Shown: piece by piece, positions 19,529 to 41,021 of the stretch
Layout of the letters: each line of letters opens with the position of its first letter
Position numbering within the stretch: the stretch's first letter is position 1
Made by a program: the position numbers and the translations under genes
The notes under the pieces: model-generated
Told to the model about the DNA's origin: nothing
The model's database searches: none
What the model saw: only the letters and a program-made list of their open reading frames with translations
Source of the DNA: an uncultured Actinomycetota bacterium
Lineage (GTDB): Bacteria; Actinomycetota; UBA4738; HRBIN12
Direction: 5' to 3'
Assembly (NCBI GenBank): GCA_963746335.1
Contig: CAVVAK010000004.1
Span: forward strand, 530,825 to 594,824
Length of the DNA: 64,000 nucleotides

Positions 19529-19649
19529 CTCGTACGAGCTCCTGGGCGCGAGGGGACTCGGCGCGGGGTTGAGACGGTATCTGAGCGGCGTCGGCTTGCC
19601 CAGACCGGATCGGCGCGGATGCATCGCCGGCCGTTGCTACGGTATCCGC

Positions 19650-20772
19650 GTGCGCATCGCCCAGGTGGTACCCCGCGGCGAGCAGCCATGGTCGGGTGTG
19701 CTGACGGTCATCGTGCACCTCGCGTCGGCACTCGCCCGACGAGGCCATCAGGTGGATGTCTGGCAGTTGCATCGATGGTCGCCCGACGTGTACCGGGAGC
19801 AGCAGCGGCGGCTGGAGGCGGCCGGGGTCGCCCAGGTTCCACTGCTGCCGACGAGGCGGCTCGGCCCCGCAGCGGCGTCGTTGGCGAAGGAGCGCCAGAT
19901 CGACGTGGTCCACCTCCACGGCGCCTTCAATCGGTCCAACACCGCGGTTTCGCGGGCGCTTCGAGGCCCGTACGTGTTCTCCCCGCACAGCGGGTACGAC
20001 CCCGTGTCACTGACCCGCGGACGCGGCAGGAAGCTCGTCTACCGCGTGCTGTTCGAGCGAACGATGCTGATGCGCGCGGCGCTCCGGGTCGCCCTGACGA
20101 ACCAGGAGCTCGGACAGCTGCGCGCCGTGGGCGTGACCGGACCCATCGAGGTGATCCCCAACGGCGTCGAGGCGGCCCCCGACGATCTCGACCGCGACGA
20201 CGTTCCGTCACGAGCTCGGACTGTCGGCAGATCCCTTGCTGGCGGTGTTCGTCGGTCGTCTCGACGTCCACCGCAAGGGACTCGACGTGCTCGTCCGTGC
20301 GATCGCCGCGGCCCCGCCCTGGCATCTGGCCCTCATCGGTCCCCGGTTCCGAGATGTGGATCGCCTCGAGAGGATGATCGCGGACCTGGACACCGGCGAT
20401 CGGGTCCACCTCGTGGGAGAACGCCATGGTCGAAGCTTGCAGGAGAGCGTGGCCGCGGGGGACGTATTCATGTTGTTGTCGCGCTGGGAAGGGCTCCCCA
20501 TGGCACTGCTGGAGGCCCTCAGCCTCGGGAAGCCGGCGATCGTCAGTACGGTCGTCGAGCCATCGGTCGGCGTCGAAGCGGCCGGTGCGGGCTGGGCCGC
20601 GGACGAAGGTGAGGTTGCGCCGCTGCTGCGCGATCTCCAGGATCGAGGGAGAGGCGAACTGGTCCGCCGCGGCGCGGCAGCGCTCGGGCTGTCGAAGAGA
20701 TACGACTGGGATCTCGTTGCGGAACGGTACGAATCCGCGTATGAACGAGCACTCGGATCGGATAGCGGGTGA
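19650..20772 (+). pseudogene. GT4 glycosyltransferase interrupted by one +1 frame break near 20202-20206 (true pseudogene or sequence error)
   Basis: N-terminal half, from GTG 19650: VRIAQVVPRGEQPWSGVLTVIVHLASALARRGHQVDVW. At ...LDRDDV the sense continues one base downstream as FRHELGLSADPLLAVFVGRLDVHRKGLDVL...LLSRWEGLPMALLEALSLGKPAIVS, the classic GT4 C-terminal half. Confidence 0.75.
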
Positions 20773-22348
20773 CGTGGTGAACGAACCGGTGCTCGGCGAG
20801 ACGCCAGACGCCGGTCACGACCCGAGGCAGGAACACGCTTCCGCCGTTGTGTCCCGCTACCACCCGTGTCCGAGATGGCTGGCACTCACGTTGATCGTCA
20901 CCGCCGCTCTCGTCTTCGTCGCCTGGCTCTTCCTGGCCGCAGCGCACATCGACGACCGGTACCAGCTCGATCATGTGTCCGGTGCCCGGATGGCCCTGGC
21001 GCAGTCCTTCGATCGCGGCACGCTCTATCCCGAGCTGTACGACGGTCGGACCTACGGGGGCACCAGGTTCATGCCGCTCCCGATCGTGCTCCACGGTCTG
21101 ACGGCCCGAATGACGGGCGAATACCTCGTCGCAGGCAAACTCCTCGGTTACGCGGCGACGCTCGGTCTCCTTGCGACCATGATGATCCTCCTGCGGCGCG
21201 GCCGGTGCCCGCTCCCCTATGCCCTGATCCTCGCCGCCCTCGTCCTGACGACGTCGACGGGATCCGACGGCTCGATGAACATGCGCGCCGACGTCCTGCC
21301 GCTCGTCCTCCAGGTACTGGCTGTCTGGATCGTCGCGAGCACGCCCCGTCCCGCCGCCACGATGGGCGCGGCCGCTCTGGCTGCCCTTGCCCTCGTTTCG
21401 AAGTTGAGTGCCGTGTGGGCGCCGGTCGCGATCGTCATCTGGCTGCTTCGGCGCGATCGGAAGCGACTGGCGGTGTTCTCGTCCGCGTACGTCGCGATCT
21501 CTGGAGCGCTCCTGCTCCTGTTCATCGGCCTCAGTGACGGACGGTTGGTCGAGAACGTCTTCGGTCTGTCCACATCGGGCATCACGGGCCTCCGATCGAT
21601 CCTGCTAGCGCCGTACCGATCGATGCACCTGCTGGTCGGGGAGGCGACGGCCGCCTGGGCCCTGATCCCGCTCGCCGGTCTCGCCGCGTGGGTCGCGATC
21701 AAGGACCGGCGGGGGTCCATCTATCAGGTGAGCTTGCTCTGTGCGACGGCGGTCCTTCTGATCGTGCTCACCGACGTCGGGACCGGTGGGAACCAGCTGA
21801 TCGACATCGTGGTACTGATCGCGCTCGTGGTCGGGGAGTTCGCGGCTCGGGTGCGGGCCGGCGTGCCGCGGATCGGACCGGCGGCGCCGGTGCTGGGGAC
21901 GGCCATCGGGCTCGTGTTGCTGTGGGCGACCTTCAGCGGGTTCATCGTCACGCTCGCCCCGGAGTTGGAGGCGATGGTCAGCGCCGAGGCGTCGTTCACG
22001 AAGACACCCTTGTCGGGCCTCGCCACGTCCCACACGTCGGTGCTCTCCGAGGATCCCTACGTGCCGATCTCACTCGGTCAGGTGCCCGTCGTGCGCGATC
22101 CGTTCATGCTGCCCAGGTTGGCCCAGCGGCAGCCCGACGCCGTCCCCGACCTCATCGATCGGATCGAGGACCAGGAGTTCGACCTCGTCATCCTGGTCGA
22201 ACCTCTCGAGCCCCTCGATCGCACCTGGTGGAGCGAGCTCGATCTCGGCACTCCGGTCGTGCAGGCGATCTCGCGCGCGTACTCGTACTCGGGGAGGGTC
22301 CAGGGCTATCACGTGTACGAGCCGCGTGAGGAGGGTTCCCTGCCGTGA
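20741..22348 (+). CDS. polytopic membrane protein (GT-C-like candidate)
   Basis: More than 10 TM segments after WLALTLIVTAALVFVAWLFLAAA. An early loop, GARMALAQSFDRGTLYPELYDGRTYGGTRFMPLP, is reminiscent of ArnT/PMT-type first periplasmic loops. Start at ATG 20741, or GTG 20774 just after the GT4 stop. Confidence 0.6.
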   Translation: MNEHSDRIAGDVVNEPVLGETPDAGHDPRQEHASAVVSRYHPCPRWLALTLIVTAALVFVAWLFLAAAHIDDRYQLDHVSGARMALAQSFDRGTLYPELYDGRTYGGTRFMPLPIVLHGLTARMTGEYLVAGKLLGYAATLGLLATMMILLRRGRCPLPYALILAALVLTTSTGSDGSMNMRADVLPLVLQVLAVWIVASTPRPAATMGAAALAALALVSKLSAVWAPVAIVIWLLRRDRKRLAVFSSAYVAISGALLLLFIGLSDGRLVENVFGLSTSGITGLRSILLAPYRSMHLLVGEATAAWALIPLAGLAAWVAIKDRRGSIYQVSLLCATAVLLIVLTDVGTGGNQLIDIVVLIALVVGEFAARVRAGVPRIGPAAPVLGTAIGLVLLWATFSGFIVTLAPELEAMVSAEASFTKTPLSGLATSHTSVLSEDPYVPISLGQVPVVRDPFMLPRLAQRQPDAVPDLIDRIEDQEFDLVILVEPLEPLDRTWWSELDLGTPVVQAISRAYSYSGRVQGYHVYEPREEGSLP

Positions 22349-23631
22349 CGACACGGAACGTCGAGCGTGCCGGGAGTGTTCGGAGCACGCTCGAGCGGAG
22401 GCTCCTCACCATCCTGACGTACCGCCCGGACATCGACGGGCGACTCCTCGTCGTCGCCGTGCTCGGGGTGTACTTCCTCGTGGTTGCCGTTCCGCGGTTC
22501 CTGTGGAACGTCGACGTCTGGCCCCGGCTGGGTGTCCCTTCCGGGCCTTCGCTGTTCTTCGACACGAGGAACCTCACGGCCGCCCTGGAATGTCGGCGAC
22601 TCGGCTTCGATCCATTGGTCCAGAACCCCTGCGACCCCTGGGGGAGGCCGCTCAACTACCCTCGCGTGTGGCTCGCTCTCCGCTGGTTGGGACTGAACCA
22701 GTCCCACACCGTCGCCCTCGCCCTCCTGTTCATCATCGTGTTCCTCGGGTCGATCCTCCTCCTGACGGGACGGGTCAGCCTCGGCAGAGGGAGTCTGGTG
22801 GCTCTGGCCGTCTGTTCCCCGTCCGTCATGTTCGCGATCGAGCGGGCGAACGTGGACATCGTCGTGTTCACCCTGATGGTTCTCGCGGTCCTCGCCTGGC
22901 GGGTCCGCAGCCGCTGGGCGGAGGTCGCAAGTCCGTTCGTCGTCCTCGTCGCCGCGACCGCGAAGATCTACCCGGTCTTCGCGCTCCCCGCCTACCTCTT
23001 CCTGCGCCGGCGCAGCGCCGCGATCGTCGCCGTCGTGTGTGCTGCTCTGTTCGCCCTCTACGCGTTGGTGACGATCGGAGACATCCAGGCGGTGGCGGCG
23101 GTCGCACCACAGGGCGAGCTCCACGCGTTCGGGGCCAGGATCCTTCCGGCTGCCATCTACCACCGGTTCATCCCCGACCGGTGGCAGGGTGGAGCGATCA
23201 CGAAGCAGCTCCTCGTCATCGTCCCCCTGCTCGCGGCCGCCCCACTCGTGTGGTTCCCGGGACGTCGGCGACGCCCTGCGGCCGACCGGGGAGCCGACAC
23301 CCCCACCCGCCTCGCGTTCTTCGCGGGATCGATGATCTTCTTGGGGACCTTCGCGATCGGCAACAACTTCGACTACCGGCTCGTGTTCCTGCTTCTCACA
23401 CTTCCTCAGCTCTTCGATTGGGTCACCGCGGAGCCACGCGATCCTCGTGCGTGGCTGGCCGGCATCGCGACGATCATCGTCGTGTCCCTTCTGTGGATCG
23501 GAGCCCTCTCGGAGCCACTCCTGCTGATGGACGAGTTGGTGACGTGGGCGGCGGTCGGCGTGTTGGTGGCACTCCTCGCAGCGTCCGTACCCTCGGTCCG
23601 CACGATCCTGGCCACGATGCGGCCAGACTGA
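22345..23631 (+). CDS. polytopic membrane protein (DUF2029/GT-C-like candidate)
   Basis: The GTG start forms a GTGA overlap with the upstream stop. About 10 TM segments; AATAKIYPVFALPAYLF resembles the K-(Y/P)-P loop of DUF2029 proteins. Confidence 0.6.
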   Translation: MTTRNVERAGSVRSTLERRLLTILTYRPDIDGRLLVVAVLGVYFLVVAVPRFLWNVDVWPRLGVPSGPSLFFDTRNLTAALECRRLGFDPLVQNPCDPWGRPLNYPRVWLALRWLGLNQSHTVALALLFIIVFLGSILLLTGRVSLGRGSLVALAVCSPSVMFAIERANVDIVVFTLMVLAVLAWRVRSRWAEVASPFVVLVAATAKIYPVFALPAYLFLRRRSAAIVAVVCAALFALYALVTIGDIQAVAAVAPQGELHAFGARILPAAIYHRFIPDRWQGGAITKQLLVIVPLLAAAPLVWFPGRRRRPAADRGADTPTRLAFFAGSMIFLGTFAIGNNFDYRLVFLLLTLPQLFDWVTAEPRDPRAWLAGIATIIVVSLLWIGALSEPLLLMDELVTWAAVGVLVALLAASVPSVRTILATMRPD

Positions 23632-23702
23632 TCCGGCTCGGGGGATCGCCGGGACGCGTATCCTGACCTCCTCGCACGATCGCGGAATCGGGAGCATCGG
23701 AC

Positions 23703-24635
23703 GTGTCCTTCGAGAAGGTGGATCTTCCTCGGAACATCGACGAGCCTGCTCGCGAGGCGTTGCCGGCAAGGGCGTCGGCCGGCGCGATCGTCTCGACGGC
23801 GCGCCCGCGACAGTGGGCGAAGAACGTCCTGGTGTTCGGGGCGCCTGCCACGGGCGGCGTCCTCACCGACCCCGCCGCGCTCGCCTCCACCATCGCCGCC
23901 TTCATCGCCTTCTGCCTCGTCGCGAGCGGCGTGTATTTCTTCAACGACATCGCCGATGCGTCCACGGACCGCCTGCATCCGACGAAGCGGTTCCGCCCGG
24001 TCGCGGCGGGCCAGATGTCCCGCTCGCTGGCGGCCTCGCTCGGTGCCCTGCTGATCGCCGTCGGCTTGGCGGTCGGGGCGTGGGGTGGCGGCGCGGCCCT
24101 GCTCGGCGTCCTGGCGGGCTACGTCGGACTCTCCGTCGCCTACATGCTCGTGCTCCGCGACATCGCCCTGATCGATCTCGCGGCGATCTCTGGTGGATTC
24201 CTGCTCCGCGCGGTCGCGGGCGGTGTCGCCACCGACGTGCCGCTCTCGATGTGGTTCTTGATGGTCGCCGGCTTCGGCTCACTCTTCCTCGCCGCTGGCA
24301 AGCGCCACGCGGAGTACGTGCAGCTCGGCGACGCGCGCGCCGACCATCGCAAGAGCTTGCGGGAGTACTCGGAGCCGTACCTCCGCTACGTCCAGTACGC
24401 CTCCTCGACGGTGGTCATGGCCGCGTACGCGCTGTGGGCATTCGAAGGCGTCGCCGGCGGGAGCCTCTGGTCGGAGCTCTCGATCATCCCGTTCGTGCTC
24501 GGCATCTTCCGCTACGCACTCCTCCTCGAGCACGGCCGAGGGGCTGCTCCGGAAGAGGTCGTCCTCAGCGACGTCCCGCTGTTGGCGCTCGGGGCGGCGT
24601 GGATCGTGCTGGTCGCCACCGGGGTCTACGCGTGA
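23703..24635 (+). CDS. decaprenyl-phosphate 5-phosphoribosyltransferase (UbiA prenyltransferase superfamily, Rv3806c-type)
   Basis: [15 protein letters not shown] and [26 protein letters not shown] match the NDxxDxxxD / HPTKRxRP signature of DPPR synthases. About 8 TM segments. Confidence 0.8.
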
Positions 24636-24681
24636 ACGAGCGTCACGGTCCCTCGTCGGCCGTCACCGCAGGGTAGTCACG

Positions 24682-25617
24682 ATGTCACGGGCGCTCGTCA
24701 CGGGCGGAGCGGGTTTCCTCGGATCCCACCTCTGCGATCGCTTGATCGCCGAGGGCTGGGACGTGGTGTGCGTCGACTCCTTGCTCACGGGACGCGAAGA
24801 CAACATGGGACAGCTTCTCGGACACGAACGGTTCGAGTACATGGCCTACGACGTGACGGAACCGTTCGCGTTCGACGGCGAGCTCGACCGCGTGCTCCAT
24901 CTGGCCTCACCGGCGTCTCCCGTGGACTATCTGCGGTGGCCGATCGAGACCCTGCGGGTGGGCGCCCTCGGAACGCTCCATGCACTGGAGCTCGCCCGGG
25001 CGAAGGAGGCGACCTTCTTCCTCGCCTCGACATCCGAGACGTACGGCGATCCGCTGGTCCACCCGCAACCCGAGACCTACTGGGGCAACGTCAACCCGGT
25101 CGGTCCGCGCAGCGTGTACGACGAGGCCAAGCGATACGCCGAGGCCGCGACCATGGCCTACCACCGCGCACATGGGCTTCCCGTGAGCATCGCGAGGATC
25201 TTCAATACCTACGGCCCGCGGATGCGACGCAAGGATGGTCGGGCCGTGCCCACGTTCATCCAGCAGGCGATGGCCGGGGAGCCGTTGACGGTCCACGGCG
25301 ACGGGACACAGACGCGCTCGCTCTGTTTCGTCGACGACCTCATCGAAGGGCTCTATCGCCTCATCGAGTCCGAGCAGGTCGGTCCCGTGAACGTCGGCAA
25401 CCCCAACGAGATCACCGTCATGCAACTCGCTGAAGCGATCCGGGACGCCGCAGGCAGCTCGTCGCCGATCGTGAACGTGGAGCGGCCCGTCGACGATCCC
25501 GAGATGAGGCGCCCCGACATCTCGTTGGCTCGAGAACTGCTGGGATGGGAACCGGCCGTTCCGCTCGCCGACGGCCTCGCCCGCACGATCGGCTGGGCGA
25601 AGACGGCATGGGCCTGA
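24682..25617 (+). CDS. uxs: UDP-glucuronate decarboxylase (UDP-xylose synthase), SDR family
   Basis: [18 protein letters not shown] (GxxGxxG), [11 protein letters not shown] (YxxxK), NTYGPRM and [14 protein letters not shown] are the UXS-type pattern. 311 aa. Confidence 0.85.
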
Positions 25618-26258
25618 CGTCCAGGCGTGCACCGATGAACGCAGGCAAGGCAGCTCGGAAGGGTGCGTTCGTGCTGATCGTCGGGCCCGACGGCACGGGC
25701 AAATCGACGCTCGCCCAGGGACTGGTGGATGCGACGAGACACGAGTTCCCGCATGTGATCCACATGCATTGGCGCCCCGGCTTGCTGCCTCGACCCGGCG
25801 GTCTCGTCGGGATCGAAGCCGGCGATCCGACCGATCCGCACGCGCGAGAGCCACACGGATCGTTCCTCTCTCTGCTGTTGCTCGCGTACCACTGGCTCGA
25901 CTTCTTCCTCGGGACGTGGCTGCGGATCGTGCCGGCCAGATCACGGGGAGGCTTGGTCGTGATGGAGCGCGGGTGGTTGGACATCGCGGTCGACCCGCGG
26001 AGATATCACCTCGCGCTCCCTCGGAAGCTCGTGGAGCGGCTCGGACGCCTCCTCCCCGCACCGGACCTCGTGGTCGTTCTCTACGCGGAGCCCGAAGCTC
26101 TAACCCGACGGAAGGCAGAGCTTCCCACCCAGGAGCTCTCCAGGCAGATGGCGCGCTGGCGTCAGATCACGTTCCCAGCCCGCACGACCAGGTTGTTCCT
26201 GGATGCCTCCGAGAGTGCGGATCGACTCCTCGAGCAGGTGAGTCGCGCGGTGCTGTAG
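25608..26258 (+). CDS. P-loop NTPase, thymidylate-kinase-like fold; function unknown
   Basis: Walker [20 protein letters not shown]. No other motif recognised. Start at ATG 25608 (10-nt overlap with uxs) or ATG 25635. Confidence 0.55.
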
Positions 26259-26320
26259 TCTCCAACCTTCCTCGGCTACCGCCTTGAGCCACTCCCCCCG
26301 ACGTCGATACGTGGAGGCGT

Positions 26321-27860
26321 ATGGCATATCCGAGACCCGGTCTGGTTCGGATCTTCACGCTCACCACGTTGGTCATCGTGCTCACACTGGGTCTGAGCGC
26401 CATGCCGGCGCCCGCCCTCTCAGCACCCCAGGGCGCCACGACGCGTGCCGTGCAGTCGGCGATCAGGGCTCAGATCCTCGCGAGGTGCGGGCCGACGAAC
26501 TGTCTCCCGGCCGTGGGACCCCGGAGGGGCATCGGGTGTCCTTCGGGATCCGTCAGACTTCGACCCGGACGGCGTCTTCAGGCCGCGATCGATGCGAAGC
26601 CCGGGGGGACAGCCTTCTGCTTCAGGGCGGGGACCTACCGCCTGAGGCGCCCGCTCCTCCCGAAGAGCCACGACGTGTTCGTTGGGCAGTACGGCGCGGT
26701 CCTCAAGGGATCGAAGAGGGTCACGGACTGGACGAAGCGGGGGGCCTATTGGGTAGCGACCGGCCAATGGCAACAGAACGAGGTGGTGAGCGGCGTGCCG
26801 TGTCAAGCGGGCATCGAGTGCAACCGTCCGGAGGGCGTCTTCCTCGGGAACAGGGCACTCGTCCAGGTGCCGACCCTTTCCGCGGTCCGGACGGGACGGT
26901 TCTTCTTCGACTATCCGCGTGACAGGATCTACATCGCGGATGACCCCCGTGGCAGGCGCGTCGAGGCCTCTATCGCCGAGGGCGCATTCCGGGCGACCCA
27001 TCATCCTGCACGGGGCGTGGTCATCAAGAACCTGATCATCGAGAGGTTCGCGAACCCCAGCCGAACCGGCGTGATCTTCAACACGAACGACCCGGGGTGG
27101 GTGGTCGCCAACAACGAGATCGCCATGAACCACGGCATCGGGATCCTGCACAACGACGGAGCGACGATCAGGAACAACCACATCCATCACAACGGCCAGC
27201 TCGGCGTGAGCGGATACCGGTCGGCCGGAGTCCTCGTTCTCAACAACGAGATCGCGTGGAACGCGATCGGCGGCTTCGCGGGCTGGGAAGCGGGCGGTGC
27301 CAAGTACGTGGCAACCACCGGACTCACCATCAGTGGCAACTACGTCCACGACAACCGGCATCACGGCTTGTGGACCGACACGGACAACGTGAACACCCGA
27401 TACGTGCGCAACACCGTCGTGCGCAACAGGGGAAGTGGCATCTTCCACGAGAACGCCTACGGTTGCGTCATCAGAGGCAACTACATCGCCCGCAATGGCG
27501 GCGGACGGCATCCTCCTCAGCTCCTCATCGAACGTGGAGGTGTTCGAGAACTCCGTGGCACTCAATCGTGACGGGGGGATCCACCTCTTCATCGACGGCG
27601 CATCGGGTCATGACCTATCCGACAACTCCATCCACGACAACGTGATCAGGATGCGTGACGGAACCTCCAACGGCATCACGACGATGAACGTGACCGATCC
27701 GCTCAGCTACTCCATCTCGAAGAACAACAGATTCAGAGGGAACTCCTACGTCGTGCCGCGGCTTCTGCAGCCGTACTGGTACTGGGAGGACACCCCGAAG
27801 ACATGGCACCAGTGGCAAGTCGCGGGTCAGGACCTCACCGGCACGATCCGCCTGCCCTGA
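26321..27860 (+). pseudogene. secreted right-handed beta-helix (PbH1 repeat) protein with one +1 frame break near 27497-27507
   Basis: Signal/TM segment IFTLTTLVIVLTLGLSAMPAPALSA. Repeated coils: NNEIAMNHGIGIL, IRNNHIHHNGQLGVSG, VLNNEIAWN, ISGNYVHDNRHHGLW, VRNTVVRNRGSGIF, IRGNYIARNG. The sense then continues in the next frame as DGILLSSSSNVEVFENSVALNRDGGIHLF...NRFRGNSY. Confidence 0.7.
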
Positions 27861-28010
27861 CGCGGCCTGTCCTCGTGTACTCCGCTGGGCTTCCCCGGAT
27901 GGGCCGCTGCGTAGTCGAGTCCAGGCCCGCCTATCGGGATAGTTACGCATCAAGAATCAACTCTCCTCGGCCGATGAAAGGGGGACAGCCAGAAGGGGAG
28001 AGAAGCGGTC

Positions 28011-29796
28011 ATGAGGGACTTTTCGCCGAGTGTTCCAGAGTGGATCTTGCTCTCCGAGGCCGCCTTCCTCACCGGCGAAAGCGAAGCATCGATCTTGGAG
28101 CTCGTTCGCTCGGGACGGATCGAAGCCCGGCAGGTCGAGAAGCACGACGCGGATCCGAGGCTCCTCCTCCTTCGAGCGAGTGATGTCCAAGACCTCGAGC
28201 GGCTGCGTTCTCTCGACGGAGAAGTCTTCAGCTTCAGCCCCGAACAGCAGAGCCCGGCCCTCGAAACGCGAGCAGCCGTCCACACCCCGTATCGGATCTC
28301 CGTAGGTCGCTTCGCGGCGGCTGCCGCGGTCATCGTCGTCTTGATCGCCAGCAGCGTCGGACTTCCCACCGGCATCTCCCAAGCGGTCGATGTCCTGTTC
28401 GTCCGCGGCACCAAGGTGCAGAAGCCTCGACCGACATGCAAGGGAACCAGCGCCAGGTGCGCGCCCCTGCCCAACCCGATCCCGTCGCCAAGTCCGACTC
28501 CGTCTCTCAGTCCGTCGCCGAGCCCGAGCCCATCACCCAGCCCCTCATCGAGCCCGAGCCCTTCGCTCAGTCCGAGTCCGAGTCCGAGTCCGAGTCCGTC
28601 GCTGAGCCCGAGCCCGTCGCCGAGACCGAGCCCGTTGCCAAGCCCGTTGCCGAGTCCCCCGCCAACCGGGAGCCTCGGTCGGGGACCGGAGGCGGCGATC
28701 ACCTGTCCCGCCGGGGCCGTTGCACATCGCTCCCGGCGCGAGCATCCAGAACGCGGTGAACGCGAATCCTGCGGGAACAGCCTTCTGTCTGGGCGACGGC
28801 GTTCACCAGGTTCCTTCACCGATCACGCCCAAGACCGGCGACAGCTTCACGGGCGAGTTCGGCGCGGTGCTCGATGGGACCGGCACGGCCTTCAGAGCCA
28901 CCCACAACTTCGAAGGTCTCATCAACGCGCACAACCAGAACATCGACGACGTGACCATCCGCAACTTGGTCATCCGTGACTCGGCCAGAACGCGGCGTAT
29001 CCACGCCTACCAGGACTATTCGGATGGATGGGTCGTCGAGAACAACGAGTTCGTGAACAACGGCATCGGCCATCTCCCATGGCAATACCTTCCAGATCCG
29101 CCGCAACCTCGTCCATGACAACTGGCAGTACGGCATCGCTTGCTACACAGTGCCATGGCTCCGTGATCGAGGACAACGACTTCTCATTCAACGCTTCCCG
29201 TCGTTCCGAGTTCCCCGGCGACGCCGGCGCGTCGAAGTGGATGGCCGCGCCGAACACCGTCGTCCGCGACAACAACTTTCATGACAACTATGGCTCGGGC
29301 ATCTGGTTCGACTTCGATAACTGCGGCCATCCTGATCGAGGGCAACCGCATCACCGACAACCAGGGCAGCGGCATCTTCTACGAGATGAGCGGCCAGGGC
29401 ATCATCCGCAACAACGTGCTTGCGCGGAACAGTCGCGAAGACATCTATCTGTCGGAAGCCTCGGGCGTGGAGGTCTACGGGAACACCGTCGAGACCCTGA
29501 AGAAGGGCATCTCCCTCTTCATCGACATGTCTCGCGGCTACGCTCTCCAGAACAACTTCATCCACGACAACAGCGTGACCGTCTTGCCGGTTTCGGGAAC
29601 ATGGGCGGTCGGGATGACGTGTCTGAACATGACATCGTCCAACTGCTTCAACTACCACACGAGCCACAACAACCGATTCGAGCGGGGCGCCTACGACGTT
29701 CCTAACCCCGCGGCAGACTATTGGTTCGTCGGCAACGCTCGGCAATTCCCGGGATGGCAGTCGCTCGGATTCGATCCCACCGGGTCGGTTCGCTAG
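28011..29796 (+). pseudogene. HTH (excisionase/MerR-like) - TM - Ser/Pro linker - beta-helix protein; paralogue of 26321..27860, with four +1 frame breaks
   Basis: ATG 28011 is preceded by GGGGAGAGAAGCGGTC (SD-like). HTH-like WILLSEAAFLTGESEASILELVRSGRIEARQV; TM VGRFAAAAAVIVVLIASSVGL; (SP)n linker. ITCPAGAV|HIAPGASIQNAVNANPAGTAFCL aligns with the paralogue IGCPSGSVRLRPGRRLQAAIDAKPGGTAFCF. Frame breaks by my reading are at about 28722, 29071, 29144-29157 and 29328. Confidence 0.65.
28464..28664 (+). repeat. low-complexity Ser-Pro coding repeat, including 5x AGTCCG at 28569..28598
   Basis: Encodes LPNPIPSPSPTPSLSPSPSPSPSPSPSSSPSPSLSPSPSPSPSPSLSPSPSPRPSPLPSPLPSPPP. The perfect hexamer run AGTCCG x5 is visible in the DNA. 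Confidence 0.9.
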
Positions 29797-29996
29797 CCGA
29801 GTAGGTCGCTTCGAGAGATCACGTCGCCCTCGACCGTGACGGCTCAGCCTTAGCCAGCCGCCCCGGCCAGGATAGGGGAACCCCCAGAGCCGCCTCGTCG
29901 ATCCGCCACCCATCAAGACAGCCTGCTCTTGCGTAGCGTGGTCGGCTTGCGGCACTATCGGTTCTCTATGCGAATGGTATCGGCGGGCGGAGGCGC

Positions 29997-30854
29997 GTGG
30001 TGTTCCTGGCAACGAGGATCAAGAGAAGGTGGTCAAACACCACGGCTATCGCGCGCTTCATCTGGACCCACCCGGCGAATCAAGGCCGACGCCTTCGCCA
30101 ACTTGTTCGATCCGCTGCGTTCGAGATCGATGGCCGCTACTTCCGTCGGCGGCGGCGCCTGATCCGCGTTGGTAGATCGCGGATGTGGGCGGATCACGCC
30201 TTCGACAGCTCAGTCTTCGCCTTCCATGGATGGCCCGTCAATTGGAACGACATGCACGCGTGGCGCCGGCATCTCCAGCCAGGAGATCTGTTCGTTGACG
30301 TTGGCGCCAACATCGGCGCGTACACGCTGTGGGCTGCGGAGGAAGGAGCCGAAGTCATCGCCGTTGAGCCGAACGGTCCAGCATGCGATCGACTTCGGGA
30401 GCACATCGAGCTCAATGATTACGTCGACAAGGTAACCGTCATCTGCGCCGCTGCCGGGGCGGCTCCAGGAGTTGCGCGGATGACAGACTCATTCGATTCG
30501 GCGAACCACCTGATCTTCGACGACGGGGAAGGGGACGTCCGTGTCGAGACCATCGATGAGATCGTGGGAAGTCGACCGATCGCTGGGATGAAGGTCGACG
30601 TGGAGGGCGCAGAACGCCTCGTCCTGCAGGGTGCAGAGCGAGCGTTGAAGGAACAACGGGTCGGCTTGCTCCAATTGGAATGGAACGCGCTGTCCCGGGA
30701 TCTTCTCGGGGAAGATCGGACTCCGGTGGCAGACCTCCTGCGAGAGAGTGGATACGGGTTCTTCTATCCAGACGAGAGCGGGTCATTGCACCCGGTGTCG
30801 GAGCCCGCTTCCCATCCGGGAGCACGCGACGTATTTGCGGCTCCCATCGCCTGA
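29997..30854 (+). CDS. FkbM-family SAM-dependent methyltransferase
   Basis: LFVDVGANIGAYTLWAAEEGAEVIAVEPNGPACDRLREHIELN and MKVDVEGAERLVLQGA are the Methyltransf_21/FkbM signature. Confidence 0.85.
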   Translation: MVFLATRIKRRWSNTTAIARFIWTHPANQGRRLRQLVRSAAFEIDGRYFRRRRRLIRVGRSRMWADHAFDSSVFAFHGWPVNWNDMHAWRRHLQPGDLFVDVGANIGAYTLWAAEEGAEVIAVEPNGPACDRLREHIELNDYVDKVTVICAAAGAAPGVARMTDSFDSANHLIFDDGEGDVRVETIDEIVGSRPIAGMKVDVEGAERLVLQGAERALKEQRVGLLQLEWNALSRDLLGEDRTPVADLLRESGYGFFYPDESGSLHPVSEPASHPGARDVFAAPIA

Positions 30855-31135
30855 CTCGGAAGCTGGCGCCAGGGCTCGGCGATCTTGGACGAGGTCATGC
30901 CCTCAGATCTGCCAGTTCGTCCATGTGCGACTGACTGAGAGATCTCTAGGCGGCTGCTGACGAAACGCGACGAGCTCAAGGAGCGAGAAGTTCCTCGAGG
31001 AGTGTCATACGCCTCGTTCTCGGTCACCCCTCTCGATCTGAAGGCGAGTGGTAGGTTTGTTTCATTGATGCTCGCCCCAGTTTCCGATTGCTCCACGTGT
31101 GCTCCCGCGACGACACATGAGAAGCCGCGTGCAGC

Positions 31136-32254
31136 GTGGAGCGACCCATCACATGGGAATCAGCCTTGAGGATCGTTCACTACTACCCGCGCGCATCTGT
31201 GGGAGATGGAGGATGTTCATATGCAGTACGCGGGTGGGCAGCTGCCGTCGCCGGTACGGGAGCGCAGGTTGTCGTCGCGTTCGATCGGCTTGGAGAGCAT
31301 CCAGAGGCCCCGGGAGTTCAGTGGGAACAGGTGCCACATCGACGACGCGGCGGACTTCGCTCCGTTGATGCCCTCAACGATGTGGTGATCGGCGCGGACT
31401 TCCTGGTGCTTCACTCAGGGTGGGTCTATCACAACGTGCAAGCCGCCAAGATCGCTCGCGGATCCGGGGTCCCCTACGTCCTCACGCCTCATGGCGCCTA
31501 CGACCCGAACCTGATGCGGAGACGGAGGGTGCTGAAGCGCCTCTGGTGGACGCTCCTGGAAGAGGAGCTCGTGTCTCATGCGGCGGCCATCCATGTCTTC
31601 TACGAAGAGGAACGCGCCCTCCTTGCGGGTCTCGGTTACGCCGGCAAGGTGATCGTCGCCCCCAACGGCGTGACCATCCCGGATCTCGCCGCGGATGGGG
31701 GAGCGACGAAAGACTACGTCCTGTGGATGGGTAGATTCGACATCGAGGTCAAGGGGATCGATCTCCTCCTCCGCGCACTGGCGTCCCTGCCGGCAGATAC
31801 CCGGCCCCCGGCACGGTTGCATGGCCCGGATTGGCGCGGTGGCAAGCGACAGGCGATCGAACTCGTGCGCACCCTCGGGCTCGAGGGATCAGTCACGATC
31901 GGTCCTCCTGTTTACGGGGCGGACAAGTGGGATACCCTGAGCAATGCTCGTCTCTTCGTCTTTCCATCCAGGTGGGAGGCGCAAGGTATCGCCGCTCTAG
32001 AGGCAGCTGGCATCGGAGTGCCGGTGGTTGCGACCGGCAGTACGTTCCTCGGGCGCCAGCTCGCCAGGGAGGGCGCTGCCCTACCCGCTGACGACAACGC
32101 TGAAAGTATCGGCTCTGCCTTGATGCGGGGTTGGTCTTCGGACACGACATCGATAGGACTGAACGGTTCTCGGCTCGTGAGAGAAGTGTTCTCATGGAGT
32201 GCGGTTGCCGATAGCTATCTTCGACAACTCGAGCCCATCCGTGATGAGATCTGA
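31136..32254 (+). CDS. GT4 glycosyltransferase
   Basis: LRIVHYYPRA...GG, MGRFDIEVKGIDLLLRAL, LFVFPSRWEAQGIAALEAAGIGVPVVAT. The real start is probably TTG 31166 (L-RIVHYYP). Confidence 0.8.
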   Translation: MERPITWESALRIVHYYPRASVGDGGCSYAVRGWAAAVAGTGAQVVVAFDRLGEHPEAPGVQWEQVPHRRRGGLRSVDALNDVVIGADFLVLHSGWVYHNVQAAKIARGSGVPYVLTPHGAYDPNLMRRRRVLKRLWWTLLEEELVSHAAAIHVFYEEERALLAGLGYAGKVIVAPNGVTIPDLAADGGATKDYVLWMGRFDIEVKGIDLLLRALASLPADTRPPARLHGPDWRGGKRQAIELVRTLGLEGSVTIGPPVYGADKWDTLSNARLFVFPSRWEAQGIAALEAAGIGVPVVATGSTFLGRQLAREGAALPADDNAESIGSALMRGWSSDTTSIGLNGSRLVREVFSWSAVADSYLRQLEPIRDEI

Positions 32255-33044
32255 TGACTCATCGAGCCTCTGGCTTCCCCTGCTCCGTACGTTGACGGAG
32301 ACGAGTACCCACTGGGGCGTATTGAAGAACGCCGATAGGGCGCTCGAGGGGATGGGCGACATCGACTCCGTCGCACCGAGAGAGGACTGGGCGCAACTCG
32401 AGCGCTGTCACCGGGATTGGGCGTCATCGAACGGAGCCATCGCGACGATCGCATGCACTCACACTCCCGGTCTACTCATCCTCCTCGCCGTCTTGCCTGG
32501 ACAAGAATCTCTCCTTCAGCTCGATCTCTTCTCAGATTGCTACTGGAGGGGAAGCACACTGTTTTCGGCGCGGCAACTTGGTCCGCTGATGACGAAGGAT
32601 CCGCGAGGATTCAGGCGAGTGAGACCCGGGGCGGAAGGGGTGGTCCTTCTTCTCCTCAACGGCACTCGGTGGGGAGCACGGCCCGACACGGCGACCCTGT
32701 TGAAACGACGAGTACCCGACTTGCTGAGAGAAGATCCAGAAGGCGTTGCGGCGACGGCTCGCGTCCTCGGGGCACCTAGGGTCTTGAGCGTGGCCTCGGC
32801 TGTCCAGAACGACGAGTGGGCGACGACATCGATCCTTTCACTCGAAGTGCGCGCCCTCGCTCGGTCGCTGTTGTGGCCCCGAGAACTTGTCGGAAGGATC
32901 CTCTGGCGCAGCAGGGCGCACGCGCGGGTGTGTCCTGTGGACCGAGCCCTTGACGATGATCGACGCATCCCGGCTGATCTCGATACCTGGTTCCGCTCGA
33001 TCGAGGCCCAAGGAACCTCCCAGCACCAGGTGGTCCGCTTCTAG
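32244..33044 (+). CDS. hypothetical protein (possible nucleotidyltransferase-like fold)
   Basis: ATG 32244 overlaps the GT4 stop by 11 nt. The only motif-like string is EGMGDIDSVAP. Coding is inferred mainly from operon position and length. Confidence 0.4.
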   Translation: MRSDDSSSLWLPLLRTLTETSTHWGVLKNADRALEGMGDIDSVAPREDWAQLERCHRDWASSNGAIATIACTHTPGLLILLAVLPGQESLLQLDLFSDCYWRGSTLFSARQLGPLMTKDPRGFRRVRPGAEGVVLLLLNGTRWGARPDTATLLKRRVPDLLREDPEGVAATARVLGAPRVLSVASAVQNDEWATTSILSLEVRALARSLLWPRELVGRILWRSRAHARVCPVDRALDDDRRIPADLDTWFRSIEAQGTSQHQVVRF

Positions 33045-33084
33045 TTCTTGAGGGGTCACCCGAAGCGCAATGCGACTCGGAACC

Positions 33085-34418
33085 TCATGCAAGCTCTGAG
33101 CGAGGTGGAGCATTCGCCCGATGAGAGGTTTCTCCATGCTCACGAAGCGCTCGAGAGAACTGCCACCAGGCGATCGGTATCCGGAGGCAACCCGCGGCTG
33201 CCAATCCCCAGGCGGCGCCTTCGGCATCCGCAATAGAAGCCCCTATGAGGGCGCACGTGATGATCGCAAGAGCGTCGATGCACCTCGCTCGGAGACTTCT
33301 CTTCGCTGCTGCGAGCGAACGGAGGCCCGCCATCGCCCCGTAGGCCAGTCCGATCGCCACCATGGCGATCGAGAGGGGAAGCAGAACGCTCCGCGCGCCA
33401 TCCCAGTTCCTACCCAGGAGGGCACTCCCGATGCCTTCGGGAAGAACCAGAAGCACCACCCCCCAAACCAGCGCACCGGATGCCAGTCCGAGCGGAGATC
33501 CAGCGGCTGGCTTTCAGGAGACGATGAGGAGACTCCTGGAGCAATCGCACGCCTTCCGGAACCGTCACCAAACCCGCCCCTCCGAACAAGATGTTGAGAG
33601 GCCCGAGAGCGGTCTGCCCGGCTCGCAAACGCCCTAGCTGAGCCAATCCGGTCAGGCCGCCGACCCCGAACAACGTGAGGCTCTGGGTGCCAGTGGTCAC
33701 GGCGAACTCCGCGAGGAATCGCGGGACGAGGTCACGTTGGTGCCTGACCCATTCGATTGACCCAGTGGGACTGTTCGGCAACAACTTCAGCTGTGCGAGC
33801 CCTACGAGGGATGCGAGGGATCCGGCGGTCGCCCACGAAAGTGTGAACCACGCCACGGTCGGATGGCTCGTGAGAGTCACGAGCCAGAAGCCAACGAGCA
33901 TCGTGACGGCCCATGTGACATCGTTGAGAAGAGCAGCGCCTCCTCGTCCACGAGCGAAGAACGCGAAGCGACACGTGTCCTGCACGAGCAAGAGTGGAAG
34001 CGCGACGCCGAGGATCACCAAGGATGACCCCGAGCGAGCCCCCCACGACGCCGCCTGCGATCAGGCTACCGAGCCCCACCAGAGCACCAGCCGCGAAGGC
34101 CATGCCAGACGCCAGCTTCACACCTTCGCGCCATCGGAGCTCTGAGACGGAGCTGTATCGAACGACGAGTGGCTCCCCTGCCAGCGCACGGACGGCGCCG
34201 AGCGAGAGAGTGAAGGTCGCGTAGGCCAAGCTGAAAGCGCCGAAATCCGCGGGACTCACGGCCCTTGCCACAAGTGCTACGAGGAGGAAGTTCGTGACGC
34301 TGGAGAGCAACTGGTCACCCAGACCCCAACCGAACCGCCGCAGTGTCCCGAGGAGGCCCGGTTTCGGGCCATCGATCGTGGAGAAGGCTCCGGTCTCTTC
34401 AGGTCTGGATATCGTCAA
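33085..34418 (-). pseudogene. wzx: Wzx-type polysaccharide flippase (MOP/PST family) with two +1 frame breaks
   Basis: Three consecutive minus-strand ORFs (33732..34511, 33410..34021, 33085..33459) join into one multi-TM protein: LRRFGWGLGDQLLSSVTNFLLVALVARAVSPADFGAFSLAYA ... GVILG|ILGVALPLLLVQDTCRFAFFARG ... RLLKAS|AGSPLGLASGALVWGVVLLVLPEGIGSALLG. Breaks are near 34010 and 33503-33510. Proposed start is TTG 34418. Confidence 0.7.
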
Positions 34419-35552
34419 CTCAGAGCCGCTCCGGTACGCACTCTCGATGTTGAGGAGTCCTTGCTCTGGCGAATACAGGTTCGACCAGGTCTGCCACCCC
34501 GCTTCGCCCATCCGCTCTGACTCAGCGTCGTCGAGAAGCCTATCGGCGCCCCGGATCCACGCTCCGGGATCGATCGGGTGGGAGCACCAAACCGGTCACT
34601 CCATCCTGAACGATCTCGGGGAGCCCACCCGCGCGACTCGCCAGGACAGGAACGCCTGCGGCATAAGCTTCCTGGACTACCCTCCCCGCTCCCTCGTGCC
34701 AGAGGGATGGCAAAGGACAGCGCGAGCCCCTCTGAGAAGCGCGGGCACCTGGTCAGGCTGAACGGTCCCCCGAAACTCGACGTTCTGTGGTGCGGCGCCT
34801 CGCAAACGAGATGCTTCGGGTCCGTCACCGATAATCAGCAATCTGGCCTTCATCAGCCTCCATGTATCTACGAGTTGCGTCAGGCCCTTCTCTGGCGTCA
34901 ACCGGCCGAGATACATGAAGTAATCACCCGCCCCTTCTCGCGGCTCAGCCGGCCACGTGAAGTGCGGCTTCACGACCATCTGATCGGTCGAGAAACCGCC
35001 TTCAACGTGCTTCTGTCGCACGAAATCGCTGATAGCGATGTACAGGCGGATACGCTCGAATGTGCGGATCGCCTTGTGAACGACAAGTGATGAGGCGAGT
35101 GCGGCGCTGGCCGCAGTTGAGTCTTGATAGCAGCTGTGAAGGACCCCAGGCCATGGAACACGGCCGATGCAGTCCTCGCAGATCTTCCCGTCGCGGAACA
35201 GTGTCGCGGGAAGACAGAGGAATCGGTAGTTGTGGAGTGTGACGACGACGGGTGCCCCCCCGACAGCCCTGATCACGGCGGGCGAAAGAGCAGGGAAGAG
35301 GTTGTGACAATGCACGATGTCCGGTTGCCGCTCCTTGATGCGGCGCTTCACTTCAGCGGCAGCCTCGTTGGACCAGATGGTGCCAAGGCCTGCACGGATC
35401 AGATCCAGCCCAGATGGCTGACCGAGTGCGGGAGTAAAGAGGTCGACTTGGTGGCCAGCTTCAGAGAGAAGGCGCGCCTCATCCTCGACGACACGATTTT
35501 CTCCGGAAGCCGGTCCAGAGCGGTACCGCGAGTGGAGGATCAAGATCCTCAC
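34419..35552 (-). pseudogene. GT4 glycosyltransferase with one -1 and one +1 frame break and no in-frame stop before the flippase
   Basis: MRILILHSRYRSGPASGENRVVEDEARLLSEAGHQVDLF...YLGRLTPEKGL... then ...AVLC|PSLWHEGAGRVVQEAYAAGVPVLASRAGGLPEIVQDGVTGLVLPPD|DPGAWIRGADRLLDDAESERMGEAGWQTW. Breaks are near 34705-34716 and 34566-34576. The 3' end is undefined. Confidence 0.7.
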
Positions 35553-35666
35553 TACCGGTTTCCTGCCCAGCCAGTTCCCAAGCAGACTGAATCACCAGGA
35601 CCCACCTCAGCCTCACGCTCGTCACGAGACATCCCTGAGCGACCTATCCCTTCTGATGGAGCGTCT

Positions 35667-37139
35667 CTAGAGACGTCTAGCGACGGGGGCCGGAGCGACC
35701 GAGTTCGAGGCGTCAGCATACTGGGCGAGCTCAAACCTCTCATCGCCGTCCGAACCCAGGAAGTTTCGCTGCGCCAGGATGGGAGCGTGTAGCAACACGA
35801 GTGTCACGAACCCCACTCCCGGGAACGCCAGCGTCTCAGACGCGACTGATGCGACAACCAGGAACGCAAGAGGGGCGACCACCAGGGCTGGATTCACGAT
35901 GGAACGCCGGGAACGGATGTGGATCAGCAGATAGAGGATGTCTGCGATCGCGAGCACCGGTCCGAGGATCCCGATGGCGAGGAGCAACTCGAGCCAGGAG
36001 CTGTGGGCAGTGCCTGCCCATTCCACCTGAGTGGGAAGGATCACCCTCGCAGCGCCATATCCGAAGCCCGTGAACCACCTTCCGGCGTCGCTGATCAGAT
36101 CGATCGAGAGCACCCAGAGGGGGATACGCCCGTTGAGGGAAGTAAGACCTTGGCTCGTCTCACCTCGCGACAGGTACTCCACGATCTCGGGCGCTGCGAC
36201 GACGACGAGCGAGACGAGTGCCACCGCGTAGTAGACAAGACCGAGGATCTTCGTCAGCGGCCTGGTTCGGCCCATCCACCAGAACATCACCGCAAGTGCA
36301 ACGAGCAAAGCCGCCATCACCGTCCGCGTTTGTCCCAGGTAGAGACCTACGGCGAGCAAGAAGATACGGAACCAATAGCCGGAGGCACGGAGACGGAGAA
36401 AGGACCTGCCGCAGGCGCCGAGCACGAGAAGAGCCAGACCCATGTACAGCGAAGCGACGATGGGGTGCATCCCCGGCCATGAGAATCGTGGCTCCTTCCA
36501 GAAGCCTGTCGCGAACCCGACCAGGACGAGGACGGTCACGACTCGAACGAACAGTGCGAACGTTTCCCTCCAGATGGCCGCCGCCCGTTCCGGAGATGAA
36601 AGCCATATCCGAACCATCAGCAGAGCGAGACCGATGGGAACGAGAAGTTGACACGCTCGTACGAAGGTGAACAACGGCACGAGGGACCACGCGGTCGACG
36701 CCAACGCGATCAACGGCCAGATCACCACAGGCCCCATCCGTAAGCGCCTGGGGTCCCGGGCTATCAATACATTCCTGGATTGCAGGACGAGTCCCGCCAC
36801 GAGCATGTAGGTGAGCACTTGGATGAAACTCTCGATAGACGTCGACGAGATGCTCGTGTCGAGAGGATCGCGGCTTCCGAACTTGAAGTCAGGTGTGAGG
36901 GATAGCGCTATCCATGCGTACGGGATCCAGCCGTAGTTGGAGAGGAATTTCCAACGGTGCCCATCGAGGAAGACGATCGACGTGATGAGCACTGCCGCCG
37001 CGAGCGCGACGGCCACCCGCCCAGACTTGAGAGCGTAGATCCCTGCCAGAGCGGCGACCACGAGGACGGCGATCCACACACCAACCGCGCTCAGGTCTCT
37101 TCCTCCGCCATTCGGGCCTGGGACCTTGGACTTGATCAT
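35667..37139 (-). CDS. O-antigen polymerase/ligase family membrane protein (Wzy-like)
   Basis: About 12 TM segments and a Wzy_C-like loop: SLNGRIPLWVLSIDLISDAGRWFTGFGYGAARVILPTQVEWAGTAHSSWLELLLAIGILG. Confidence 0.75.
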   Translation of the reverse strand: MIKSKVPGPNGGGRDLSAVGVWIAVLVVAALAGIYALKSGRVAVALAAAVLITSIVFLDGHRWKFLSNYGWIPYAWIALSLTPDFKFGSRDPLDTSISSTSIESFIQVLTYMLVAGLVLQSRNVLIARDPRRLRMGPVVIWPLIALASTAWSLVPLFTFVRACQLLVPIGLALLMVRIWLSSPERAAAIWRETFALFVRVVTVLVLVGFATGFWKEPRFSWPGMHPIVASLYMGLALLVLGACGRSFLRLRASGYWFRIFLLAVGLYLGQTRTVMAALLVALAVMFWWMGRTRPLTKILGLVYYAVALVSLVVVAAPEIVEYLSRGETSQGLTSLNGRIPLWVLSIDLISDAGRWFTGFGYGAARVILPTQVEWAGTAHSSWLELLLAIGILGPVLAIADILYLLIHIRSRRSIVNPALVVAPLAFLVVASVASETLAFPGVGFVTLVLLHAPILAQRNFLGSDGDERFELAQYADASNSVAPAPVARRL

Positions 37140-37153
37140 TCGTGCTCTCGCCT

Positions 37154-38408
37154 TCAGCCCACGATGCCGTCGATGGTTGATGCTGGCGCCTCGGGACCTG
37201 CTTGAAACGTCTTGGACGAGACCCGCTCCTCATGTACCTCGAAGAGATGAGGCAGGCGCGTCTCGAGAAGCTTACGTATGCGCGCGGCGCTGCTGTCGAT
37301 GTCGGGGTGTGCGTGGATCGGAGCATGGGCAGCATCCCTCACGGTCTGTGCGAGATCGGCAACGGTTCTCGACACATCGGTCGGGATGACTCCCGTTCCC
37401 CCGATCTCGGGTGGTCCTCCGCGATGCAGGCACACGACGGGCAAACCCGCAGCCAGGGCTTCCGCTACGACGAATCCGCCCTCGTCGTGGATGCTGGGGA
37501 AGAGAAGCACATCCTGCTTCGCCACGCATCAGCTCCTCAACCCGAGAGTCAGAGATCCATCCGAGGAACCGCACGCGATGCTCCACGCCCAGTTTCCTGG
37601 CGAGGCGCTTCAGGCGTGGCCGGTCCGAGCCGCTTCCGCAGATGATCAGGGCCCATCCATCGAGTTTCACCAGAGCGCGGAGCGCCAGAGCCACTCCCTT
37701 CCAGGGGAGCAGGCGTCCCACGAACAAGGCTGTTGGTTGTGGCCGACGCGGCGCGGCGCGTGCGATCGGTCGCGGCCGATCAAGGACCACGTGCGGGAAG
37801 ACGACCGTCTTTTCCTGATGCCGGGCAGGGAGCCACGTACGGGTCTCGGGATTCTGCACCAAGATCAGATCGGCGCGCCACCAGGGCAGTCTGGCCAGCG
37901 GATTGGCATACCGAGCGACGGCTCGCGCGGAAGCCCGCGCCGCCTCGAAGATCGCACCGCGGATGCCGAGCACGCTGACGAGGTTCCAATCCATCCCCAC
38001 GCCCCCACCGACGGGTCCATAGATGAATGGACGACGGAGGAGAGGTGCGAGCGCCCCCAGCCATGCGTTCGCCCATGTCAGATGCCAGACCACATCGAAG
38101 GAGACACCTCGGGAGAGAGCACGTGCTCGCCGGAGGGCGGCCACCTGCCAAAGGAGGTAGTAGAGCCTCGCGCCCTTGGCCCCACGCTTCCAGGAGCGCG
38201 CCCGCTCCGGCAGGTCGACGTATTCGAAGTGCAGTCTCCCCTTCTCAGGGACTTGCGGAAGAGCCGCCTCGATCACACTTCTGTTGCTCTCTCGAGTGAT
38301 CACCCACACCTCAGCGAAGCGGGCAAGCATGCGCGACCAGATCCATCCGGCTCCGGGCTCCGACCCCTTGTCGGGTTCACACGCATACGCGAATACGAGC
38401 ACACGCAT
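37154..38408 (-). pseudogene. GT4 glycosyltransferase with one +1 frame break near 37520-37526
   Basis: MRVLVFAYACEPDKGSEPGAGW...ALFVGRLLPWKGVALALRAL...RVEELMR| then the next frame reads AKQDVLLFPSIHDEGGFVVAEALAAGLPVVCLHRGGPPEI. Confidence 0.75.
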
Positions 38409-40990: not shown

Positions 40991-41021
40991 GCACCCGAAT
41001 CCTGTCCCGGCATGTCCGTGT

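Follow-up and report, generated by a model that had tools for sequence, protein, structure and literature searches.

The stretch of DNA analysed here (the window; 64,000 nucleotides of contig CAVVAK010000004.1, assembly GCA_963746335.1) comes from an uncultured Actinomycetota bacterium. Its gene at 28011..29796 encodes an N-terminal domain (N-domain) of predicted winged helix-turn-helix (wHTH) fold, a linker, a single transmembrane segment, a Ser-Pro stalk and a right-handed parallel beta-helix. The fusion of the N-domain, the transmembrane segment, the stalk and the beta-helix is genuine, and the protein is a member of a small conserved family of bitopic membrane proteins encoded by uncultured bacteria. 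The reading of this protein as a membrane-integrated one-component regulator is plausible, with a probability that we put at about 0.4.

The fused gene and its orthologues

The translation from the start ATG at 28011 begins MRDFSPSVPEWILLSEAAFLTGESEASILELVRSGRIEARQV and runs to the stop codon at 29794-29796, according to the open reading frame (ORF) listing and a three-frame translation. The product has 592 aa once four single-nucleotide insertions are removed. Its anatomy agrees with a preliminary description of the stretch, which had given the coordinates 28011-29796 and the same order of domains, and the single transmembrane helix and the Ser-Pro stalk of about 65 aa named there are both present in the repaired translation. 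The parts of the gene are as follows.

28011..29796 (+): whole gene, with the wHTH, linker, transmembrane segment, Ser-Pro stalk and beta-helix; intact single-ORF orthologues at L002:3225-4967, P0004 and P0005
27993..28002 (+): Shine-Dalgarno-like AAGGGGAGAG, 8-10 nt 5′ of the ATG at 28011; read from the sequence
28035..28217 (+): N-domain, residues 9-69, predicted excisionase/MerR-type wHTH, probably cytoplasmic; AlphaFold2 (AF2) model and Foldseek
28218..28310 (+): linker, residues 70-100, probably cytoplasmic, poorly conserved and predicted disordered; alignment and the P0005 model
28311..28364 (+): transmembrane segment FAAAAAVIVVLIASSVGL, residues 101-118, single and hydrophobic, probably N-in/C-out; sequence and a helix in the P0005 model
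28461..28667 (+): Ser-Pro stalk, residues ~151-219, about 65-70 aa; sequence, predicted disordered
28674..29793 (+): right-handed parallel beta-helix, residues ~222-592, probably extracytoplasmic; Pfam, the P0005 model and Foldseek

A search with the beta-helix part gave 553 homologues, and among the 120 listed only P0004 and P0005 carry the N-domain. Both are intact and full-length (598 and 585 aa, respectively) and have the same domain order. The closest homologue, P0001, shares 80% identity in the beta-helix, and its gene was called as 344 aa, cut after the Ser-Pro repeat. Its contig, L002, holds an open frame from the ATG at 3225 to the stop at 4967 with the full domain order and no frame break. 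The N-domain, a transmembrane segment and an ectodomain are in frame also in P0124, P0125 and P0133, there with other beta-helix types.

The preliminary description had considered that the helix-turn-helix (HTH) part might be a separate upstream gene. This is excluded by the single ORFs in L002, P0004 and P0005, and the N-domain is conserved in all three of these intact orthologues.

The N-terminal ~100 codons could also have been a chance ORF extension, or a mis-called start in front of an ordinary secreted beta-helix protein. Two results lean that way, the word-index search with the N-terminus, which gave zero matches, and the sub-threshold score for HTH_17 described below. This reading is effectively refuted by other evidence. 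An exhaustive phmmer search of 1.84 billion representatives gave 13 matches, 12 of which are true N-domain homologues (the remaining P0131, a CheA-like protein, is a false positive). The domain recurs, conserved and in frame, in no fewer than six independent fusions, the GC content at third codon positions (GC3) supports frame 0, and the AF2 fold is confident.

Predicted structures and membrane orientation

The AF2 model of the N-domain, built from a 16-sequence alignment, has a mean predicted local distance difference test (pLDDT) score of 77, rising to about 90 in the core. Its elements are strand β1 (residues 11-13), helices α1 (14-21) and α2 (25-34), strands β2 (39-41) and β3 (52-55) and helix α3 (56-69), and this beta-alpha-alpha-beta-beta-alpha topology is the layout of a winged helix. 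The full-length P0005 model shows identical N-domain elements.

In Foldseek against the PDB, the top rank is taken by the mycobacteriophage Pukovnik Xis (4j2n), with a target-normalised template modelling (TM) score of 0.76-0.78, a root-mean-square deviation of 2.0-2.3 Å over 55-56 columns and an E value of 0.01. The next matches are RacA-DNA, CbpM, the RdfS excisionase, GlnR-DNA, CarH and BldC-DNA. In predicted viral structures, nearly every top match that has a name is an HTH or excisionase protein, and many of these belong to actinophages. At the level of the predicted fold, we accept the N-domain as an excisionase/MerR-type winged helix.

The sequence is less telling than the fold. The gathering score of HTH_17 (PF12728) is 27, whereas the window copy reaches 12.5 bits (E 0.19) and 14.4 bits (E 0.046), and sub-threshold matches are found in seven of 15 members of the N-domain family, the best with E 0.0076. 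As judged by such scores, the N-domain falls outside HTH_17. The preliminary description had called the N-terminus HTH_17/MerR-type; the predicted fold upholds this assignment and the sequence, with HTH_17 below threshold, does not.

NCBIfam models on the repaired protein gave para_beta_helix repeats and a weak MamR-like match over the N-terminal stretch, and nothing more. The PHROG matches of the N-domain are weak and mostly of excisionase or MerR-like families, including all the recurrent ones, which are a MerR-like regulator, an excisionase, a recombination directionality factor and a Cox-like protein. The word-index search with an N-domain profile gave two short fragments only.

In the alignment of 15-16 N-domains, P9, W11, E16 and A17 are invariant and G35, L53 and D58 nearly so. 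The consensus is PEWVTLxEAAFLTGxSE, or P-E-W-[IV]-T-x-x-E-A-A-F-L-T-G-x-S-E in its degenerate form. The N-domain shares the 'EAA..L.G.S' pattern of helix 1 and the turn with the small excisionase, HTH_17 and MerR winged helices, and the same predicted topology with Pukovnik Xis (4j2n), RdfS (8dgl), BldC (6amk) and RacA (5i44) at target-normalised TM scores of 0.5-0.78. It differs from the known winged helices in its conserved P-x-W before strand 1 and its longer wing. Moreover, the known ones are soluble and DNA-bound, whereas this one would be membrane-tethered and is sub-threshold for Pfam.

The N-domain family appears rare by these searches and by motif scans. Degenerate DNA motif scans found the strict motif in one of 185,579 GTDB species genomes and gave seven matches in metagenomes, and a metagenome scan with a single protein gave 600 pattern matches, none of which was confirmed. 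The family is found only in uncultured bacteria, with one source being an Actinomycetota metagenome-assembled genome (L005).

The ectodomain is far better defined by sequence. Pfam Beta_helix (PF13229) matches with 3.3e-23 (82.5 bits, gathering 25.9) and NosD (PF05048) with 4.2e-16 (59.5 bits, gathering 23.6). In the P0005 model, the beta-helix has a pLDDT of about 98 throughout, and it gave 86 PDB matches in Foldseek at E<=1e-3; among the matches listed, 50 of 50 are beta-helix proteins. They include the tailspike depolymerases Det7 and CBA120 and the alginate C5-epimerases AlgE4, AlgE6 and AlgG, as well as the Vibrio polysaccharide lyase RbmB, the PL6 chondroitinase B and other lyases and hydrolases, all with identities of 10-15%.

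The ectodomain thus looks like the polysaccharide lyases, C5-epimerases and depolymerases in its modelled structure. The polysaccharide-active type that the preliminary description had proposed is supported by these matches and by the location in a glycan-biosynthesis cluster. The family-invariant Asn, Lys, Asp, Glu and Trp residues, and also Arg and His, are all present in the repaired window copy. The solved enzymes are only 10-15% identical to the ectodomain, and at this distance the catalytic motif of any given CAZy family is not assignable.

Between the two domains, the P0005 model has a transmembrane helix at residues 102-115, a disordered stalk at 124-211 and low pLDDT in the equivalent linker. 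Ser-Pro stalks are likewise present in L002, L005, P0005 and P0125, and P0004 has a Ser/Pro-rich version. The repeat is polymorphic in length: L014 and P0005 (L003/L004) are otherwise identical orthologues, and their stalks differ by an extra EPSPSPSP unit. Short-read contigs tend to stop inside the repeat (L005, P0121).

Most other beta-helix family members examined begin with signal-peptide-like N-termini, so the C-terminal part is probably exported. Because of these signal peptides in the relatives, the lack of any before the folded N-terminus of ~95 residues and the extracellular character of Ser-Pro repeats, the orientation is probably N-in/C-out, with the N-domain in the cytoplasm and the beta-helix outside. 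The positive-inside rule is ambiguous for this protein. With N-in orientation inferred, the topology is ToxR-like, namely an N-terminal cytoplasmic wHTH, a single transmembrane segment and an extracytoplasmic domain.

The regulator reading and its alternatives

If the protein is a regulator, the stalk would carry the beta-helix through the cell wall, and the beta-helix would bind, and probably cleave or modify, the cluster's own polymer at the cell surface. The cytoplasmic winged helix would bind DNA near the membrane. The protein would then be a one-component regulator that follows the logic of ToxR and CadC with another kind of DNA-binding fold, and through it the envelope-glycan genes would be transcribed according to the state of the polymer outside the cell.

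Several observations favor this reading. The characterised members of the fold class are nearly all DNA binders. The wing loop is rich in Arg and Lys in most members of the family, and small standalone homologues occur, as with the Xis/BldC-type proteins. Additionally, the N-domain stands at the front of several membrane or extracytoplasmic modules that are unrelated to each other, in the way of one-component HTH domains.

These other homes of the N-domain are diverse. P0124 and P0133 combine it with beta-helices of the type of the secreted paralogue encoded upstream in the window, and P0125 with a CEMIP-like beta-helix on a Ser-Pro stalk. In P0122 and P0129, two tandem N-domains precede a transmembrane segment and an S26 signal peptidase. 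The gene of the tandem protein (L006:8001-9095, also L007 and L008) lies directly upstream of a SpoIID-domain gene, and its neighbours are the housekeeping genes recG, coaD-like, rpmF, rnc, fpg and rpmB.

At L012:1834-2841, the N-domain is fused to a polytopic PpoB2 membrane domain (PF09948, 'copper chaperone'), a suggestive combination, the fold being MerR-like and the membrane protein copper-associated. Standalone N-domains of ~68 aa are encoded in L011 (3590-3796), L015 and L016, between coiled-coil and UbiA prenyltransferase genes. A UbiA gene is found also in the cluster of the window (23703-24635).

A series of observations weighs against the regulator. By sequence, every member scores under the Pfam threshold for HTH_17, and the N-domain profile found nothing significant among PDB sequences. 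The net charge of the N-domain is about 0 on family average and -5 in the window copy, and the alignment shows no conserved surface-exposed basic residue in the recognition helix. The N-domain evolves faster than the ectodomain, with identities among relatives of 32-48% versus 50-80%, and the ratio of nonsynonymous to synonymous substitution rates (dN/dS) against L002 is roughly 0.7 for the N-domain versus 0.16 for the beta-helix. The upstream regions of four loci have only short, non-shared repeats and no conserved operator-like repeat. One of the top fold matches is CbpM (3ucs), a MerR-like protein that was crystallised together with the J-domain of CbpA, to which it binds. Several fusion partners are enzymes and not classical sensors, including the S26 signal peptidase in its housekeeping setting.

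Many of these points would suit another role, in which the winged helix is a cytoplasmic handle for protein binding or localisation that tethers a surface polysaccharide-processing enzyme or, in the relatives, a signal peptidase and other envelope proteins. We regard this as possible though somewhat less probable than the regulator. RodZ has a cytoplasmic HTH, one transmembrane helix and an extracytoplasmic domain, and its HTH binds MreB, not DNA. A handle would be consistent with the unrelated partner ectodomains (three beta-helix families, the S26 signal peptidase and PpoB2), with the S26 fusion among housekeeping genes beside the SpoIID gene, with the fast evolution and the neutral or, in the window, acidic N-domain, with the upstream regions devoid of an operator-like repeat at the four loci and with the CbpM match.

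Just upstream, the window and L002 both have a conserved P-loop gene, whose product could be a partner of the cytoplasmic domain. This protein, the glycan-assembly machinery and a bacterial tyrosine kinase (BY-kinase) are tentative candidates for what such a handle might hold, in analogy with RodZ and CbpM. However, the characterised proteins of the fold class nearly all bind DNA, the wing is basic in most members and small standalone homologues exist. RodZ has an Xre-type HTH_25 and a DUF4115 ectodomain, neither of which has a Pfam match in the target protein. Neither RodZ nor CbpM shows a sequence relation to it in Pfam and NCBIfam, CbpM being a fold match.

Much less probable, in our estimate, is that the hydrophobic segment is cut as a signal peptide, albeit one with a very long extension at its N-terminus, and that signal peptidase would release the beta-helix. 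The window copy has PTGISQA/VD, an AXA-like site, after the hydrophobic core, and the signal-peptide-like N-termini of most other beta-helix members examined would fit. However, the AXA-like motif is not conserved in L002, P0004, P0005 and L005, Sec signal peptides do not typically have an n-region of ~100 folded residues, and the long Ser-Pro stalk would make most sense if the protein stays anchored. In this reading, a stub of the wHTH and the transmembrane segment would be left behind, perhaps to be freed by intramembrane proteolysis.

The nearest relatives of the regulator reading in design are ToxR, CadC and TcpP, which are membrane-integrated one-component regulators (PMC5430869, PMC6320335, PMC7888679). 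They have an N-terminal cytoplasmic winged helix, a flexible linker, a single transmembrane helix and an extracytoplasmic C-terminal domain in one polypeptide, as here. However, the DNA-binding domain of the ToxR family is an OmpR/PhoB-type wHTH, whereas the one here is predicted to be excisionase/MerR-type, and Trans_reg_C has no match at E<=10 in the repaired protein (Pfam). The periplasmic domains of that family are sensors, while here there is an enzyme-like beta-helix on a Ser-Pro stalk.

The RsgI anti-sigma-I factors of Clostridia and Bacilli report the state of extracellular polysaccharide or the cell wall to transcription (PMC10328401, PMC6852018), and their extracytoplasmic disordered regions matter for sensing (PMC9732909). 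Like the target protein, they cross the membrane once, with a regulatory domain on the cytoplasmic side and, outside, a disordered region and modules that act on or bind carbohydrate. In contrast, RsgI acts via sequestration of sigma-I and regulated proteolysis, without an HTH of its own. RsgI_N gave no Pfam or NCBIfam match, and the scanned neighbouring genes included no member of a sigma-factor family.

On the outer side, RbmB (9ozl), AlgG, AlgE4, AlgE6, the PL6 chondroitinase B and the tailspike depolymerases have the right-handed parallel beta-helix in common with the target. The known beta-helix enzymes of exopolysaccharide (EPS) loci are secreted or periplasmic and without a cytoplasmic domain, and are 10-15% identical to it. 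A literature search found no described protein with HTH_17/MerR-type, transmembrane and beta-helix parts, in agreement with the preliminary description, which knew of no such combination. Membrane-tethered winged-helix regulators and EPS-locus beta-helix enzymes are each known but their joined form is apparently undescribed.

To our knowledge, the excisionase/MerR fold is not known from membrane-tethered regulators. The models also allow a bolder and rather doubtful proposal, that the family represents a new class in which an excisionase/MerR winged helix at the inner membrane face is controlled by an enzymatically active extracellular domain. This domain might, just as tentatively, be a beta-helix lyase or epimerase here and a signal peptidase or PpoB2 in the relatives. 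If so, a cell would learn the state of its surface polymer by way of the very enzyme that processes this polymer.

If the winged helix binds DNA, a single protein would make the path from an extracellular polysaccharide-processing enzyme to transcription, and this would hint at how uncultured Actinomycetota monitor their surface glycans. Even without DNA binding, an unannotated N-terminal module is defined that marks type-II envelope proteins and is invisible to Pfam at its curated thresholds. Its practical use is limited, as the family is rare and known only from metagenomes and the window copy is broken or mis-assembled.

Frame breaks and the glycan locus

The target gene has exactly four frame breaks in the window, the number that the preliminary description had noted, and all are +1. 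They were placed by translation, GC3 and DNA alignment, and the profile of GC content by codon position shows matching changes of frame. The secreted paralogue upstream has one more.

28722 (approximate) (+): frame break 1, frame 0 to 1, one extra base relative to L002
29070 (approximate) (+): frame break 2, frame 1 to 2, one extra base relative to L002
29147 (approximate) (+): frame break 3, frame 2 to 0, one extra base relative to L002
29322 (approximate) (+): frame break 4, frame 0 to 1, one extra base relative to L002
26321..27860 (+): secreted beta-helix paralogue with a signal peptide (BLASTP); one +1 frame break near 27480-27510

The paralogy of the target to 26321..27860, also pointed out in the preliminary description, is real but distant, with 34% identity (BLASTP E 2e-45). 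A hidden extra frameshift in 28101-28220 was suspected since the GC content at first codon positions exceeds GC3 there. It is ruled out, as P0121 aligns continuously to residues 2-109 and the alternative frame is of low-complexity Ser/Arg. A suspected break in the DegT gene at 39842-40990 was likewise dismissed, the ORF being full length.

The target gene and its paralogue may be true pseudogenes of recent origin, with a window copy that does nothing, and we give this somewhat less than an even chance. In its favor, the two beta-helix genes account for every one of the five breaks, four in the target and one in the paralogue. Their neighbours look intact, and the flanking FkbM, GT4, Wzy, GT4, DegT and GNAT genes and those at 20-26 kb are long ORFs with full-length Pfam matches. 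Moreover, all four breaks of the target lie outside homopolymer runs in the alignment to L002. However, each of the five inserts a single base (+1), an odd pattern for natural decay, and the beta-helix keeps a dN/dS of 0.16 against L002 along with every family-invariant residue.

Errors of assembly could also produce such breaks. A contig of 99.4% identity, L001 (ENA ERZ25039588 contig_31991), differs from the window over 14687-26875 by 11 scattered single-base indels. At three of these (21183, 21341 and 21759), the window has a long high-GC3 ORF and L001 has fragmented ORFs, so L001 has indel errors there that went uncorrected, and errors of this kind do occur in these data; at the other eight, the comparison is uninformative. 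L001 ends in the paralogue, at the edge of an island that is lower in GC, more divergent and evidently hard to assemble.

Exact-protein look-ups of 29997-30854 and 29281-29796 found no record and hence no second assembly of the target gene. On this mixed evidence, the window copy owes its breaks either to mis-assembly or to very recent inactivation. Whatever their cause, intact members of the family exist elsewhere.

In the Pfam scan of the window, the cluster, of the Wzy type for surface glycans, comprises GT87, UbiA, a nucleoside diphosphate (NDP)-sugar epimerase/dehydratase, the P-loop protein, the secreted beta-helix paralogue and the target gene. Further along are the FkbM methyltransferase, GT4, the Wzy_C polymerase/ligase and the second GT4, and beyond it an APH-like kinase, the DegT aminotransferase and a GNAT/FemAB-like protein. 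The gene of P0005 adjoins GT4, WecG, epimerase, GT2 and Wzy_C genes, and that of L005, the Actinomycetota relative with a 62% identical N-domain, adjoins GT4 and a Wzz/BY-kinase gene. The link to surface-glycan loci is consistent across the window, P0005 and L005.

The P-loop (GPDGxGKST) protein upstream of the target is encoded at 25545-26258 of the window and at L002:2508-3101 and is without a confident Pfam family. Only in the window does the paralogue sit between the P-loop gene and the target gene.

At about 26 kb, the GC content falls from ~68% to ~63% (island ~26000-42000). L001 ends inside the paralogue at window position 26875, and in its final 800 bases mismatches to the window become about 8-fold denser. 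From its composition and divergence, this boundary looks like the edge of a strain-variable glycan island.

An antisense ORF of 289 aa with Gly-Leu-Gly repeats (27950-28819, -) is a by-product of the Ser-Pro repeat DNA and no gene. On L002, the JGI gene caller placed a comparable antisense gene, cutting the true gene short.

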